From the sequence record PZ445554.1: a stretch of 64,000 nucleotides of DNA; one strand, given 5' to 3'. A program made the position numbers and the translations under genes. The notes beneath the pieces were generated by a model. The model saw only the letters and a list, made by a program, of their open reading frames with translations, was not told the DNA's origin and searched no databases. Positions 5,202-42,016 of the stretch are shown here, piece by piece (positions within the stretch are counted from its first letter, which is position 1; each line of letters opens with the position of its first letter). The stretch is from a phage.

Positions 5202-6138
5202 ATTTAAATTGTTCAGTAACGTCTTCAACTACTTCGTATTGACAGGTACGCATTTTAGCATCGTTGTAATCAATCGGAATTGATACTACATCACGCGGAT
5301 GTACTTTAACTTTTACAACTCGGCTGGTTGAACTGCCAAAGTGACGAATATAAGATTTAGAACACACATGCAGACCACGAGAACAAGTTTGTGTATCATC
5401 GTCATTCACACGAGTACGTGGCATTTTAACTACTTTACCCGGACTGTTATCAAAGGTGTTTGAGTGACAGTCAAAGTAATTGCTGCGAACTACTTTCCAA
5501 GCATAGAAGTAGCCATCTTCTGTAATTTCAATATCGTTTGCTACCAAGAAATCAAAGAGTCGAGATACTGCTTTTTGGCTTGGGTTTTCCAGCAGATTTT
5601 CCAAGAACGGAAAATAAAATTCAAAGTTTTCGCCTTTTTCCATCGAGTCAAGAATACGATCAACCAAACCAGACCGCAATTCAATATTTTGATAGAACAA
5701 GCTTCCACCTTCAATTCGAACATCGCCGGAAATATATTTTTCAACAGCGCGACGAACATTAATTTTTTGTGCCGCTTCTTCCAACTTATCCGCTACAAGC
5801 AGATTAAGAATTTCCTGGAAGTTTGAATGAGTATTAGGAGTTGCGTTATAAGTTACACCGTCAACAGTAATTGAAATGAATTTTTTAGATGCATTCCAAA
5901 TAATGTCAGATTTAGCAACTGGAGCAATAACTGCATCGCTATTAACTTTAACTGTAATATCACCGCTAATAGTAACTTTAGGGCGTTTAGCTTCTTCAGC
6001 ATTTTTCAAAACACGACGGATTGTGTCAACCGATACATCCTTCCAATAAGCTAATTCCTGCTGAGTGTAATTACCACTTGAATACAGTTTAACAATTTCA
6101 GCTTGTTCGTTTTTGGTCAGGCATTTAATATTGTACAT
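5200..6138 (-). CDS. rIIB: rIIB protein
   Basis: ORF track 312 aa; N-terminus MYNIKCLTKNEQAEIVKLYSS and length match recalled T4 rIIB; directly downstream of rIIA. Confidence 0.9.
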   Translation of the reverse strand: MYNIKCLTKNEQAEIVKLYSSGNYTQQELAYWKDVSVDTIRRVLKNAEEAKRPKVTISGDITVKVNSDAVIAPVAKSDIIWNASKKFISITVDGVTYNATPNTHSNFQEILNLLVADKLEEAAQKINVRRAVEKYISGDVRIEGGSLFYQNIELRSGLVDRILDSMEKGENFEFYFPFLENLLENPSQKAVSRLFDFLVANDIEITEDGYFYAWKVVRSNYFDCHSNTFDNSPGKVVKMPRTRVNDDDTQTCSRGLHVCSKSYIRHFGSSTSRVVKVKVHPRDVVSIPIDYNDAKMRTCQYEVVEDVTEQFK

Positions 6139-6149
6139 AATTTTCCTTA

Positions 6150-8327
6150 TTAGGCCGCAAGGGCCTTCATAGTTTTAGCGATTTGAGAAACTTCATCATC
6201 ACTTAAAGAGTTGCGATATCCGATGAAGTCGGAAACAATACGGAATTTCTTGGTAAACTCAGCAACCATTTTATCACTGTTTTTTGAAGCATTATTTGAT
6301 AATACATCAAAAAGATTAGTTACTGTCCAGATGTCATGACCGATGGTATCTTTTCCACCATTAAAATATACACCGCGCAATGAACTAACTATATTAGCGA
6401 GTCGTGTATATTCTTCAGAAACTTCATCTGTACTGAAGTACTTCATCATAAAATCTAGTTCAGGATACTTGATAATTTTATCAATATATCGTTGAGCTGA
6501 ACTTGAATAACCTACGTACTTATCATAATCTACATCATCAAAAGCATCTACATATAAATCACGCAGAGTTTCAAAAATACATTGGCACTGACCGAGTTCT
6601 TTTACCTTTTTCTGCAAAAGCGGACGAATAACATAAAACTCATTAATGCCAATAAGATTAGCCATACGAATCAAAATATTCATAGATGGATGACAAAGAG
6701 ATGTAGTACCATCCATAGAGAAAATATCAGAACGATGCATATACGCTACATAACCAGTAATTTCATCTGCTTCTGATGTGAGCGTAAATAGTTCCTCTTT
6801 TTCCCAGCGCCCGTCTTTAATTTCAAACTTAAATGCTGTAGCAGCTTTAGGACGAGGAGCTTTACTTTTAACTACCTTTGGAATATAACTTTTTACTAAA
6901 GCTTCAATTTCTGACAAATAATGAATGTTAACTTCATCACTTTCAAACATCGCCATAATGTCAGGAAGTAAATCAATCTGCGATTCTACTTCTGGGTTAA
7001 TAAACAGAAGGCGTTCGTTATGATGAATATTCAAAGTGTTATTAAATTCACTATCATCTAATGCATGCGCTAATCCACGGACAATATTAACACGATTTTT
7101 AATATTGTCAATAACGATATTAATTTTTGTTGTATTAATACCAAACAGACGATAACTTGATGCAACGGCTGAAGTTTCATGACTTTGCTTAATGCGTTTC
7201 AGTCGAGGGTCAAGATTTACTTCATACACAACTCCTGCATTGCATAACTTACTGTCAGGTTCAAACATGCTTTGCATCTTTTTATATGACAGATTTTTAG
7301 TCGTGAATTTGACTGAATTACTAATCATATAATCTCGAGCAGAATATCCCATCTTCATCAATTCACGATATGTGTGACGAGGAGATGTAGATTCTTTAAA
7401 TCGTTTTACATCTTCATTAAATGCTTTCTCACTGAGTTCTTTAACTCGTTCAATAATATTTTTACGAGTACGATCATCTAGTGAAAGAGCTTCGCGTGAT
7501 GGAGCAATATCAAGCGAACCCATTGGAAACTTAATGTAATTCACTTCATTACGAATGCTTAGCCAGTTACGGTCTTTAATAACACCATCGATAGGATAAA
7601 CAATACCGCCATAGATAGCATATAATCCACCACGATCAGGCCAGTATCTTTCTGGATTTACGCCGTAATAATCATCAAAATCCGGAAAATAATCAATTTC
7701 GCGGTCAAGACCATTAATGATAGCCAAATCTTTGAATGGTCGCATGATATAAGAAACTTCATAAGCAAAGTTTCTAAAGTCTTTTTCTTCAACTGGAACT
7801 ACGATTTCAATACCAGTTTTATCATCTGGACCCATTTCTTTTACGAATGTAGGTTTAATCTGTGGACCATCACCATCCATGTAAGCTACATAACCACGAA
7901 TTTCACCTTTATGATACGAAGTAATACTAAATGTATCAGTATAACTAAATGGAGATTTAGAACCTAAACCAAATCCGCCAATAAAGTCATTAGATTCAGC
8001 CTTAGATGAACTGAAGTATGAATTATACAGACCAGGAGAATTATCATCACCTTGAATATCAAAATCACTCATACCCGGACCAAAATCTCGGCAAACAAAT
8101 CGCGGGTCTAATCGTCCTGGAACTTGAATGATAAATTTTTCAGGATTTCCATTGAGAGCATGGGCATCAATCATGTTAGTAATCAATTCACGGACTACTG
8201 CGCGAATCTTGTTTGTATACAAATCAGATGACAGAATTTTAAATACTTTAGGAGATGCTGTGATGCTAAATGCTTTTGATTTAGAACCATTACCAAGAAT
8301 TGTTTCTTTTTCAGTGGTGATAATCAT
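6150..8327 (-). CDS. rIIA: rIIA protein
   Basis: ORF track 725 aa; N-terminus [20 protein letters not shown] and length match recalled T4 rIIA. Confidence 0.9.
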
Positions 8328-38590: not shown

Positions 38591-38777
38591 TATCTAAAAT
38601 GTTGAAGTTAAAAGATACAGCCCAGTCAGTGCAGACCGTAACCTTTTTAATACAATTATCTTCAACTTCTAGTGGTTCAAACCAGTATTCAATAATTTCT
38701 TTATGACCAATATCATCTTTTACTTCGCATTCAAAATGCTGACTCATCATAACATTTTTAAATTCATCAAAAGTCAT
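38514..38777 (-). CDS. Hypothetical protein (87 aa)
   Basis: ORF track; ATG overlaps gene 47 stop. Confidence 0.5.
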   Translation of the reverse strand: MTFDEFKNVMMSQHFECEVKDDIGHKEIIEYWFEPLEVEDNCIKKVTVCTDWAVSFNFNILDNDTPKSLRDMAVSCIKDAYCEVFDI

Positions 38778-39793
38778 TGTGTTGCCTCTACATATAGCTG
38801 ATTTGCATATTGAATAAGTGCTTCACGATCAGAATCAGTGATGTCTGGAATTGCATTAATATACTCTTCCATTAATGTCTGAAGCGATTGAACTTCAACT
38901 TCTTCACTGTCATCTGACTCGACAGAGTTATCAATCTTTGACACAACTCGTAATGAATGCACAACTTTTTCTAGTTCAGATTCGAATTTCGTCAGATTTT
39001 TGTCTACTTCAGTTACTATAACACGTACTGATAGATTTGTAAAATCTTTATAGTCAATTTTTCCTTTAAATGGATAATGAATTCTACGATGCCAGGTAGT
39101 ATTGTTTGGAATAAATTCCATTCGTTCTGTTTCTGTATCAAACATCCAGAACCCACGAGGGTCATTCTCGTCACCTGCTGTTAGTGTCCATGGTGTCCCA
39201 ATATATCTGACGTTTGCAGCCTCAGAAATAGTATGGAAGTGACCAGACCACACTTCTTTATAAGTCTTAAGGAAATCAGGTTCAAGACCGTGAGATTTCA
39301 TTCCTTTATAAAAATAAAATCCATTCAGTTCCCAGTGACCAACACAAAAAGAAGCAGATGAAGTTTTGATGTGTTCAAGAATTTCACCAGTATTTTCTTC
39401 GCACATCCAAGGAATTAAATCAATCAAACACCCGTCAAAATCTACTGTAGTAGGCTTATCATATACTTTAACATTAGGATATTTAGCCAAAAGCTCAGTA
39501 GAGGCATTTGGATGCATTACATTTTTGTAGTGGAGATCGTGATTTCCTACAATAGTATGTAATGTGATTCCAGCGTCATCAAGCATTTGAACTATTTCAC
39601 GGGCAAACTCCATAGTTTTATGTGTGATTGCTTTTCGCACATCAAAAATATCACCATATTGAATCCATACAGTAATTCCATTTTTCTTAGAATATTCTAT
39701 CGCTTGCTTAATTCCATCAATTTGAATACCGCGAATCCACTCATCATCAGCTTTAACGCCTAAATGCCAATCACCCAAGTTTAGTATTTTCAT
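38774..39793 (-). CDS. 47: Recombination nuclease subunit gp47 (Mre11/SbcD-like)
   Basis: ORF track 339 aa; phosphoesterase motifs LGDWHLG, GNHD. Confidence 0.9.
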   Translation of the reverse strand: MKILNLGDWHLGVKADDEWIRGIQIDGIKQAIEYSKKNGITVWIQYGDIFDVRKAITHKTMEFAREIVQMLDDAGITLHTIVGNHDLHYKNVMHPNASTELLAKYPNVKVYDKPTTVDFDGCLIDLIPWMCEENTGEILEHIKTSSASFCVGHWELNGFYFYKGMKSHGLEPDFLKTYKEVWSGHFHTISEAANVRYIGTPWTLTAGDENDPRGFWMFDTETERMEFIPNNTTWHRRIHYPFKGKIDYKDFTNLSVRVIVTEVDKNLTKFESELEKVVHSLRVVSKIDNSVESDDSEEVEVQSLQTLMEEYINAIPDITDSDREALIQYANQLYVEATQ

Positions 39794-40394
39794 GGTGTCT
39801 TTTCCATCCTAATTTAGCTGCTTTTGAAACCAGTTCTTTAATTTTTCCTTTTGTCCATTCAGGACCAGGAGGTTCATGACATAACATTTGCTTAACTCCG
39901 TTATTATACCATTTTTTACCTTTATTATGTGATGAAGCTTTAAATTTATTTGACCTTCCTTTTGCATAACCTTCTGGAATATAAGGCAAAAAGGCAGATT
40001 TTCCTGTTAATGGATCATGTGAATGTATATTTCCTTTACAATTATGAGAACCATATAATGGATGATTTTGTCCTTTATTATCTCTTCCAAATGAACCTTT
40101 TGGAGCAGCATATGACATATTAAAGAATAATGGATTTTTAACTGCATCATGCAATCGTTGATAATATAACTCGCATTTAATAGCTTCTTCACGCGTATCA
40201 AATTCAGCTAAAATGCATGAATCAAATAAGTGAGGATTATCTGAAAGCTCTTTATTATAAATTTTCTTATACTTTTTAGATAAAACTGAACCATGATATC
40301 CAGCTAAATGCCTATCTAAAGACGTAGATCCAATATAAAAAGGAGGAAGTTTATCTCCACTATATATTGTTAAATAAGTTATATATTTTTTCAT
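39771..40394 (-). CDS. GIY-YIG family homing endonuclease-like protein (207 aa)
   Basis: ORF track; N-terminus YLTIYSGDKLPPFYIGST (GIY...YIG) with downstream conserved Glu; basic C-terminal region; overlaps gene 47 start by 23 nt. Confidence 0.65.
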   Translation of the reverse strand: MKKYITYLTIYSGDKLPPFYIGSTSLDRHLAGYHGSVLSKKYKKIYNKELSDNPHLFDSCILAEFDTREEAIKCELYYQRLHDAVKNPLFFNMSYAAPKGSFGRDNKGQNHPLYGSHNCKGNIHSHDPLTGKSAFLPYIPEGYAKGRSNKFKASSHNKGKKWYNNGVKQMLCHEPPGPEWTKGKIKELVSKAAKLGWKRHHENTKLG

Positions 40395-40531
40395 ATATCA
40401 AGAACCGTCATTGAAATGCAAAATAAAATTATTGAAATAAATCCATCTGGAGTGCTAAAGAACCCAATCCAACATGCTCTAGTGAATAGATAAAATGCAA
40501 GAAAAAGTATCACATATCCAAGAAATATCAT
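40391..40531 (-). CDS. Small membrane protein (46 aa), not in ORF track
   Basis: GGAG Shine-Dalgarno; MIFLGYVILFLAFYLFTRACWIGFFSTPDGFISIILF. Confidence 0.35.
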   Translation of the reverse strand: MIFLGYVILFLAFYLFTRACWIGFFSTPDGFISIILFCISMTVLDI

Positions 40532-40555
40532 TATATCAAACTCCGTATAAAGCTA

Positions 40556-40573
40556 AAGGGCCGAAGCCCTTTA
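40556..40573 (-). terminator. UUCG-tetraloop hairpin overlapping a-gt stop
   Basis: AAAGGGCCGAAGCCCTTT perfect inverted repeat. Confidence 0.5.
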
Positions 40574-41773
40574 TTTTGTAATAATGTCAAACTGTTCTTT
40601 AAAGCAGAAGCTTGAATCTTGATGCTGATACAAAAATTCATATGCTTTTTCTCGCTCACGGTCATAAAGAGCTCGGTCAGATGACAGTTCTTTAATACGT
40701 TCAAATGTTGATTCCATGTCATTTTCATCAAACCAAATGATACCGCTATCATGCGAGGTCAAAGGAGTATTATCAACACGGAATTTTAAATTTTCGCCAG
40801 TAGATTTCCAAAATACCGGAATTGTTCCACATGCACCAAGCTCGAGATGAGTATATTCTAAAGAACGTTGTAGATATTTTTTATCCAACTTACTCAACTG
40901 ATAACCAAAACCGGATTTACTCATGCGTTCAAGCATTTCGCTATTTACATAACGGTCAAGAATTTGCGTTGGCAAATTAGGAGCAATTTTAATTTGGTCT
41001 ACTTGATGAAGACGATAATACTCGTATGGAATTCCTTTTTCTTTAATAGGAATGAACGCTGGAGAACGTTCCAGACCTTCCATAATAGTACTTAGTCCTG
41101 CAGGTTTAAGATGTTTTTCGTGAAAATCAAACATCTGATAAAAACCTTTCCATGTAGTCGTACGACCAATCCAACGATTGATATTCATGTTAATTTCAGA
41201 AACATCTTTCCAGTAGGTTGACCGAACCTTCGCAATATCCATAGGAGGCTGAAAGTTATATACTGTCGGCGCTTCTTCAATATCATCAAATAAAGAAACT
41301 GTTTCAGGATACCACTCTTTCATCAGAACTTTATTAAAATCACCATTATCAGAATGACTAAAAATAACATCAGCTCGACGAACAGTTTCTTCTAATCCCA
41401 AATTTCGGCGCAAAGAAAGAGAAGAGTGGTCATGTTGATAAACTACAACACGAACCGAAGGTTTAATGTTATCAATAATTTTTTTATAGTTATTAATAGT
41501 GTCTTCTTCAACTGAAGTAGCAGGAACTGAATTGATAATTAGAATATCACAATCATTTACCAGCTTAAGTGTTTTATCGTATTCTTTTGCCAATAAAACC
41601 GGAATTGAAAATGATTTATAATCATGTGCACAGTTACGAGTAAATGATTTATCTTTAGCATAAACCAAAGTTACTTCATGACCATTTTTAATAAACCAAT
41701 CACGTTGCTCAAGAGAAAATTTAGTTACACCACAACCTTCAAGACCCCGAGCCATAAAAATACATACTTTCAT
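40571..41773 (-). CDS. a-gt: Alpha-glucosyltransferase
   Basis: ORF track 400 aa; N-terminus M.ICIFMARGLEGCGVTKFSLEQRDWFIKNGHEV matches recalled T4 a-gt. Confidence 0.85.
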   Translation of the reverse strand: MKVCIFMARGLEGCGVTKFSLEQRDWFIKNGHEVTLVYAKDKSFTRNCAHDYKSFSIPVLLAKEYDKTLKLVNDCDILIINSVPATSVEEDTINNYKKIIDNIKPSVRVVVYQHDHSSLSLRRNLGLEETVRRADVIFSHSDNGDFNKVLMKEWYPETVSLFDDIEEAPTVYNFQPPMDIAKVRSTYWKDVSEINMNINRWIGRTTTWKGFYQMFDFHEKHLKPAGLSTIMEGLERSPAFIPIKEKGIPYEYYRLHQVDQIKIAPNLPTQILDRYVNSEMLERMSKSGFGYQLSKLDKKYLQRSLEYTHLELGACGTIPVFWKSTGENLKFRVDNTPLTSHDSGIIWFDENDMESTFERIKELSSDRALYDREREKAYEFLYQHQDSSFCFKEQFDIITK

Positions 41774-41797
41774 TTAATATCCTCTTTGTTTTGGTTT

Positions 41798-41822
41798 ATT
41801 TTACCAAAAATTTATAAAGCAA
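41798..41822 (-). promoter_or_regulatory. Middle (MotA-dependent) promoter for a-gt: TTGCTTTA, 11 nt, TAAAAT
   Basis: Minus-strand TTGCTTTATAAATTTTTGGTAAAAT. Confidence 0.45.
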
Positions 41823-41824
41823 TA

Positions 41825-41842
41825 TAGGAGCCGAAGCTCCTA
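41825..41842 (-). terminator. UUCG-tetraloop hairpin (TAGGAGC-CGAA-GCTCCTA)
   Basis: Inverted repeat following a small ORF stop. Confidence 0.45.
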
Positions 41843-41956
41843 TCCACATAATACGCCATACAGAGGCTCGTTAGAACTTTTAAATTTTATGCGCTTATAT
41901 GTTATAGTTCCTTCTGCTTTAGCTTTATCATGAGACTCTTTAAAGCGTCTCATCAT
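41840..41956 (-). CDS. Small basic protein (38 aa), not in ORF track
   Basis: AAGAGGAAA Shine-Dalgarno; MMRRFKESHDKAKAEGTITYKRIKF. Confidence 0.3.
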   Translation of the reverse strand: MMRRFKESHDKAKAEGTITYKRIKFKSSNEPLYGVLCG

Positions 41957-42016
41957 TTCCTCTTTAGAGGAACGAATTTTATTATAATCTATTTCAGAAG
42001 TCTGGGTGTTCATCTT

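Follow-up and report, generated by a model that had tools for sequence, protein, structure and literature searches.

What is the gene that some T4-like phages carry between genes 47.1 and 47, where T4 itself has none, and how does it come to be there? The window analysed here, a 64,000-nucleotide stretch of phage DNA (sequence record PZ445554.1), holds one copy, an open reading frame (ORF) of 207 amino acids on the minus strand that runs from ATG to TGA (39771–40394) and is referred to here as seg. The stretch comes from a T4-like (Tequatrovirus) phage, and the 3.1 kb around seg is 98–99% identical to many Escherichia and Shigella T-even genomes. The original prediction, made from the letters of the window without database searches, took the ORF for a free-standing homing-endonuclease-like gene of the GIY-YIG kind. 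Our results support its assignment as a Seg-type free-standing GIY-YIG endonuclease with SegE-like architecture and about 20% identity to any T4 Seg protein. With a probability of roughly 0.8, we read it as a homing endonuclease that spreads by intronless homing with co-conversion at the 47.1/47 junction, its cleavage, target position, immunity and homing all being putative. A chance ORF is not at issue, because the protein has 169 homologues (E <= 1e-3) in a large protein database and falls firmly within a PHROG family (phrog_10820, E 1e-93).

For the N-terminal 104 residues a GIY-YIG nuclease fold is predicted. An AlphaFold2 model based on an alignment of 51 homologues has a mean pLDDT of 84.7, rising above 94 for residues 1–100, and its nuclease domain shows the GIY-YIG alpha/beta fold, a three-stranded sheet flanked by helices (beta 4–11, beta 19–25, alpha, alpha 40–52, beta 57–65, alpha 68–81). 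The top three Foldseek matches in the PDB are all the catalytic domain of I-TevI (probability 0.96–0.99, target TM 0.56–0.59). Among predicted viral structures (BFVD) there are 79 matches at E <= 1e-3, and the named ones among the matches listed are GIY-YIG, Seg-like, NUMOD or other endonucleases. Within the 51-homologue alignment Y33, G35, S39, L56, F57, A71, E75 and N92 are invariant and Y7, T9, Y11, G13, Y20, I21, G22, S23, K40, Y42 and R68 are at least 90% conserved, the conserved residues of the domain also including a G32-Y33-x-G35-S36 motif. Core residues do not vary even among homologues of only about 35% identity, from several genera, and this conserved core shows long-term constraint.

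The peptide YLTIYSGDKLPPFYIGST, quoted in the original prediction, does stand at the N-terminus of seg and carries a degenerate GIY-YIG motif. A canonical GIY-(N10)-YIG signature had been claimed; the motif is present, with Y20-I21-G22 as its YIG part, but the spacing does not hold. Aligned with SegE by profile, the protein has its 'GIY' tyrosine at Y7 (T-Y-L) rather than Y11, which gives 12 residues between the two elements instead of 10 and a loop two residues longer than that of I-TevI. The conserved glutamate noted downstream is E75. Together with N92 it aligns with the invariant E67 and N83 of SegA–E, the two residues being the counterparts of the metal-binding E75 and of N90 in I-TevI, and the catalytic-type residues, whose loss had been named as a point that would count against a homing endonuclease, are thus found intact.

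Comparison with the T4 seg and intron endonuclease sequences, taken from the T4 record, places the protein among the Seg enzymes. In hhalign the 51-member family matches T4 SegA–E with a probability of 97.3% (E 2.5e-11) over 196 columns that include the C-terminal repeats, and SegG with a probability of 95.8% (E 6.5e-9). In the pairing with SegE, Y7 of seg falls on Y6, Y20-I21-G22 on Y17-I18-G19, and G32-Y33-x-G35-S36 on the Seg signature DGY.GSG. The C-terminal half, residues 105–207, is basic (pI 9.9, 19 K+R and 8 H), in agreement with the His/Lys-rich tail described at the outset. It contains two repeats, GNIHSHDPLTGKSAFLPYIPEGYAKGR and GKKWYNNGVKQMLCHEPPGPEWTKGK, modelled as beta-hairpins and followed by a helix at 186–196, and the last residues (196–207) are modelled as disordered, with pLDDT below 50. 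The two repeats are the hhalign counterparts of the two W.NNG...P.GW.KGR repeats of SegE and of the single one in SegB. Many distant homologues keep the N-terminal ~115 residues and differ in the C-terminal half, where they have NUMOD3 repeats. Paralogues at other loci (for example HX01 100706–101071; vB_EcoM_G2285 5791–6156; Klebsiella phage Mexia 5808–6149) likewise have N-terminal ~115 residues that are 55–67% identical and C-terminal halves that differ, which suggests one catalytic module shuffled onto different DNA-binding modules.

Public annotation gives the protein another name. The family phrog_10820 is labelled 'HNH endonuclease', and many RefSeq records use that term; seg also has a weaker match to a PHROG family labelled 'homing endonuclease'. 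That seg is in fact an HNH enzyme has next to no chance of being right: no HNH-type Pfam family matches at E <= 1 and only GIY-YIG does, the predicted fold matches GIY-YIG structures and no HNH structure, and the homology is to SegA–E and SegG. The fold and profile results thus refute the label. A GIY-YIG protein has been systematically annotated 'HNH endonuclease' in RefSeq (for example NC_054933, NC_054911 and NC_054919), apparently by way of the phrog_10820 label, while some submitters have used 'putative homing endonuclease' (Bas42) or 'homing endonuclease' (Killian, and the 69% homologue in KP185). The fold search, the profile comparison and the motif conservation all return a Seg-type GIY-YIG protein, so the homing-endonuclease-like identity first proposed is upheld, with nuclease activity as a prediction.

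The minus-strand order is a-gt (40571–41773), a 46-amino-acid ORF, seg and gene 47, and the principal features are as follows.

39771–40394, minus strand: seg-like ORF, 207 amino acids, with a GIY-YIG domain at residues 1 to ~104, a NUMOD3-like linker at ~105–118 and a putative basic DNA-binding region at ~119–196.
40083–40394, minus strand: the part encoding the predicted GIY-YIG nuclease domain (residues 1–104), delimited by the 51-homologue alignment, Pfam PF01541 (residues 4–84) and a beta-beta-alpha-alpha-beta-alpha secondary structure.
39774–40082, minus strand: the part encoding the basic C-terminal half, from the hhalign repeats against SegE and SegB, the predicted structure and the pI of 9.9.
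39794–40394, minus strand: 601-nt insertion relative to T4 by pairwise alignment, bounded by the 7-nt direct repeat ATGAAAA.
39776–39785, minus strand (positions 39785, 39784, 39779 and 39776): four synonymous substitutions in gene 47 codons 3–6, a candidate recognition or cleavage-immunity site, linked to the insertion.
40391–40531, minus strand: homologue of gene 47.1, a 46-amino-acid predicted membrane protein, its DNA 100% identical to T4.
38774–39793, minus strand: gene 47, SbcD/Mre11-like recombination nuclease subunit, the conserved gene behind the element, which probably holds the target.

The last 23 nt of seg (39771–39793) overlap the start of gene 47, its TGA lying 23 nt inside that gene, and the ORF coordinates confirm the overlap that had been noted. 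A position between 47 and a-gt, as originally given, is correct; the immediate neighbour on the a-gt side, however, is not a-gt but the 46-amino-acid ORF, which is the homologue of T4 gene 47.1 (phrog_6693, E 1.5e-31, and T4 annotation) and whose stop codon overlaps the ATG of seg in an ATGA arrangement. Pairwise alignment bears out the picture of a mobile-type gene wedged between conserved ones, since 601 nt of the window have no counterpart in T4 and lie exactly between T4 genes 47.1 and 47. On the upstream side the window shows 100% identity to T4 over 323 nt (40395–40717), which take in the end of a-gt, a terminator hairpin and the whole of 47.1, and on the other side gene 47 is 1–2% divergent over most of its length. 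The gene 47 ATG of T4 overlaps the stop of 47.1 (GATATATGAAAAT); in the window it is seg that starts in this context (GATATATGAAAAAAT), and gene 47 is preceded by GACACC (GACACC-ATGAAAAT). A direct repeat of 7 nt, ATGAAAA, bounds the insert and forms the first 7 nt of both seg and gene 47.

The occupancy of this junction is variable. A phage genome collection was probed with a 59-nt sequence for the empty junction (coverage >= 80%) and a 62-nt sequence for the filled one; the T4-type empty junction was found in about 444 records, nearly all at 100% identity, and the filled junction in 68. A tblastn search with the seg protein returned 69 records at >= 90% identity. Several ICTV species, teqdroes, fps90, gizh and knp5 among them, have filled sites; T4, T2, RB51, RB55, wV7 and slur02 are empty, as are six of six Tequatrovirus contigs from IMG/VR. 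The gene is therewith present in ~13% of Tequatrovirus records, about one in eight T4-like coliphages, among them readily available phages of the BASEL collection such as Bas42 (AndreasVesalius). The comparison across T-even phages that had been proposed as a check thus gives 68 filled against ~444 empty sites, and the alternative outcome, a gene present at this locus in all relatives, is not seen. In most of the 68 filled records the ORF is intact and the protein at least 97% identical. With tblastn the copies in ESh34 and ERS-1 come out in two or three pieces, which may reflect frameshifts or sequencing errors. A shortened seg in Shigella phage KNP5 (NC_055713) was considered as a decayed copy and rejected, the gap being a run of 99 N from the assembly.

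Carriage of seg goes with a particular start of gene 47. Codons 3–6 read ATA CTA AAC TTG in the window and ATT TTA AAT TTA in T4, four changes within 10 nt that are all synonymous for gp47 and that alter the overlapping tail of Seg from ...ENFKFR to ...ENTKLG (T, L and G instead of F, F and R). All four are present in each of the five filled loci fetched, the window included, and in none of ten T4-type empties; the records listed include no filled site that has T4-type codons. In another nine records the filled-junction probe is matched in its gene 47 part only, with 100% identity in the seven of them listed. The four of this kind that were fetched, SHFML-26, BCPEco_001, UGKSEcP1 and Ec_YwIITB1, each have 47.1 running straight into gene 47, the T4 arrangement, together with codons 3–6 of the seg type. 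Three allele classes result: empty with T4-type codons (~435 records), filled and recoded (68) and empty and recoded (~9). With the 68 filled sites taken as all recoded and set against 9 of 444 empties, Fisher's test gives p ~2e-75, a value uncorrected for relatedness. The T4-type gene 47 start is common to Mosigvirus PNJ-9 and a non-Tequatrovirus T4-like contig (L017), and a Dhakavirus-type contig without seg (L026) shares the first 15 nt of the recoded gene 47, so the recoded stretch looks as if it came in together with the gene. The linked variation probably represents either immunity of the target site or flanking sequence that derives from the donor. As for the recoded empties, they may have lost the gene by precise deletion through the 7-nt repeat, or they may be resistant alleles that existed beforehand.

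Homologues at the same locus, 60–69% identical to seg, are also found, again rarely, in Dhakavirus and Jiaodavirus. Dhakavirus QL01 carries a 205-amino-acid homologue (60% identity) directly upstream of gene 47, with a 14-nt overlap, where JS98-type relatives carry 47.1; its gene 47 codons 3–6 are synonymously recoded (ATT CTT AAT ACG, against ATA TTA AAC ACA in the JS98-type relatives). Phage vB_EcoM_005 has a 251-amino-acid homologue at the same place. In the Klebsiella Jiaodavirus KP185 a 69% homologue, covered in 4 of 143 related records, overlaps gene 47 by 17 nt, and the first ~360 nt of gene 47 are 72–88% identical to JD18, against 93–97% deeper in the gene (apart from a single 60-nt block at 77%). 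Phage vB_KpnM_GF has a KP185-type gene 47 (99%) without seg and is the counterpart of the recoded-empty class. About 240 nt between a-gt and the seg homologue of KP185 (locus record L044, 1258–1497) are extra, being absent from JD18.

Codons 3–6 are the best candidate for an immunity difference because the changes are synonymous for gp47, tightly clustered, completely linked to the insertion and recurrent in a second genus. We tentatively suggest, at somewhat less than even odds, that seg belongs to a Seg subfamily specialised on the first codons of gene 47 in at least three Tevenvirinae genera, that codons 3–6 are its recognition or cleavage site and their recoding the immunity, that the ~9 recoded empties (SHFML-26 and UGKSEcP1 among them) are resistant alleles left by precise loss via ATGAAAA, and that the translational coupling of gene 47 has been hijacked. 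Were this true, the three allele classes would be a complete natural snapshot of a homing endonuclease gene's cycle of invasion, loss and resistance.

Intronless homing has been described for T4 seg genes (PMC2988022, PMC2330249), and our data are consistent with a similar route here. The GIY-YIG domain would be tethered through the NUMOD3-like linker to a basic DNA-binding region of two SegE-like beta-hairpin repeats. In mixed infection with an empty-junction T4-like phage, the enzyme would bind and cut near the start of gene 47, and the phage recombination machinery would repair the break with the seg-carrying genome as template. In this way the 601-nt gene and a short flanking stretch of gene 47 would be copied in, by intronless homing with co-conversion. 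What protects the carrier genome is probably the set of four synonymous changes in codons 3–6 of gene 47. The seg gene has no apparent promoter of its own. It occupies the ATGA translational-coupling context that belongs to gene 47 in T4, and it provides gene 47 with new upstream sequence.

Hairpin- or late-promoter-controlled expression is described for some T4 endonuclease genes. For seg such control was considered and dropped: no T4 late promoter (TATAAATA) was found within ~18 kb, and RNA structure at the seg and gene 47 starts is not significant, with z-scores of +0.5 to +1.6 that correspond to weaker folding than in shuffles. Sigma-70-like sites are no more frequent than in shuffled sequence. 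Most likely, expression of seg rides on the a-gt/47.1/47 transcripts and is translationally coupled to 47.1. Further upstream, after the a-gt terminator hairpin (40532–40570, minus strand, identical in T4), an AGCTTTA-N12-TATAAT element that overlaps the 47.1 start codon resembles, by eye, a MotA-type middle promoter with a MotA box and a -10 element.

Several observations weigh against the homing reading. The Pfam GIY-YIG family (PF01541) matches seg over residues 4–84 at 20.6 bits (E 5.8e-4), under the curated gathering cut-off of 22.6, so that the sequence motif alone is insufficient; at E <= 0.01 the model matches 15 of the 51 family members (best E 2.4e-5). Sequence searches against the PDB fail to reach I-TevI, neither the single protein nor the 51-sequence profile matching a nuclease among PDB chains, and hhalign against the single I-TevI sequence aligned only the NUMOD3-like stretch. 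It is thus the fold, and not the sequence, that supports homology to I-TevI. An NCBIfam search of the protein returned noise only. The canonical catalytic arginine, R27 of I-TevI, has no strictly conserved counterpart in the family as aligned: the candidate is R28 in seg, in a column where most homologues have K or R and some have Q, N or E. This is not an argument for inactivity, because T4 SegA–E likewise have no invariant arginine and are reported to be active nucleases. Among them, SegB has been reported as active (PMC2330249). For seg the active-site geometry and chemistry are predictions. At the level of recent evolution, four full-length copies differ by 0–3 synonymous and 2–4 non-synonymous codons (residue 144 is A in the window copy and V in the other three), a pattern that is not biased to synonymous change and does not demonstrate recent purifying selection; the differences are too few, so dN/dS is uninformative. 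A comparison of gene 47 and the 600 nt upstream of it in 19 Tequatrovirus loci showed no site that tracks the insertion other than the four in codons 3–6. The rest is mosaic, there being no seg-linked haplotype beyond the four sites, and an extended co-conversion haplotype spanning gene 47 and the a-gt side was accordingly rejected. The linkage of the four sites could in principle also reflect the disordered Seg tail that they alter, or plain hitch-hiking donor sequence.

Given these points, seg might be decaying or already inactive, an intact ORF that no longer cleaves and is passively carried between 47.1 and 47. The non-synonymous differences, which equal or outnumber the synonymous ones among the four copies, the possible frameshifts in ESh34 and ERS-1, the variable arginine and the existence of empty sites with a seg-type flank, as expected under gene loss, would all fit. 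We nevertheless regard it as unlikely, in that most of the 68 records preserve the ORF, distant homologues from several genera keep the core residues without change, the difference counts are too small to measure selection, and the split copies may be sequencing errors, an apparent 'deletion' in KNP5 having proved to be a run of N. Less likely still is that the nuclease has been co-opted for the benefit of the phage, by excluding competing T-even genomes, by stimulating 46/47 recombination or amplification, or by attacking host or parasite DNA. Precedent comes from the contribution of T4 Seg and mob endonucleases to the partial exclusion of T2 (PMC2993671) and from a recent report that SegB promotes amplification of anti-defence loci (PMC13096335), and seg does sit in a recombination-nuclease operon, translationally linked to 47.1 and 47. 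However, no sequence feature separates co-option from plain selfish homing, only about one relative in eight carries the gene, and marker exclusion is a by-product of homing that needs no separate mechanism. A homing endonuclease gene remains our preferred reading of seg.

The surroundings of seg show further variation. Identity of the a-gt gene to T4 is only 91% over its whole length but 100% in its final ~150 nt, as it is in the terminator and in 47.1, which places a recombination breakpoint (~40718–40860) a few hundred nucleotides from the seg insertion. T4 has the HNH homing endonuclease gene mobB between a-gt and a-gt.2 (NC_000866, 37885–38679), and the corresponding stretch of the window (41774–41839, between a-gt and a 57-amino-acid ORF at 41840–42013) has no mobB-type gene. 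With mobB absent in the window and seg absent in T4, endonuclease content either side of a-gt is therefore reciprocal. An annotated homing endonuclease gene lies between 46.1 and 46 in T2 (L038, 2986–3059) and SHFML-26 (L034, 2964–3037), and an unnamed ORF has the same position in BCPEco_001 (L035, 2964–3037); the window and T4 have no gene there. The 46.1/46 junction is thus a second variable endonuclease site in the 46–47 operon.

Homing endonuclease genes are the main variable, selfish part of T-even genomes and shape marker exclusion and mosaicism between co-infecting phages. In this sense seg is an expected kind of element that will not surprise a specialist. It is not among the T4 seg genes and is a new, uncharacterised member of the well-known Seg homing endonucleases; a literature search of incomplete coverage turned up no previous account of any seg gene at the 47 locus and no seg letter name for it, and the gene, being absent from T4, is not known to have been studied. 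Its assignment corrects a mis-annotation propagated in RefSeq and PHROGs. The natural allele classes (empty T4-type, filled and empty recoded) make both the target and the protection of the carrier directly testable with existing phages.

The closest known enzymes are T4 SegE in architecture and SegG in the catalytic domain, and the best structural match is I-TevI. With SegA–D and SegE, seg shares a catalytic domain that has the Seg-specific YIG...GY.GS motif, the glutamate and the asparagine, and with SegE also two C-terminal W.NNG...P.GW.KG(R/K) repeats. Like SegA–E it is a free-standing ORF between conserved genes with a patchy distribution. It differs from them in an identity of only ~19–20%, in the replacement of their invariant G.HS histidine and the second glycine of GSG by T24 and V37, in a GIY hairpin loop that is two residues longer, and in its 47.1/47 locus, which is vacant in T4; its cleavage is a prediction. 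For SegG, at the gene 32 locus, genetic and biochemical evidence has been reported for cleavage at a distance and co-conversion. SegG gives the best single T4 match to the seg catalytic domain (31% identity over 98 columns in hhalign), and the two share PP.YIGS and E..YQ....NP.FFN.. stretches, although SegG has another C-terminal region and another locus. The I-TevI catalytic domain (td intron endonuclease; structures 1LN0 and 1MK0) is the best solved match in fold, but I-TevI is intron-encoded, its catalytic domain is not detectable from seg by sequence, seg has neither its zinc finger nor its helix-turn-helix module, and the counterpart of R27 is uncertain. Nearest of all in family and place are the homologues of IME08, QL01 and vB_EcoM_005 (60–63%) and of KP185 (69%), which lie immediately upstream of gene 47, are likewise rare and are likewise associated with diverged gene 47 5' ends. 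These same-locus proteins are 31–40% diverged, some bear extra C-terminal extensions (251–311 amino acids), and they probably have different sequence specificities.

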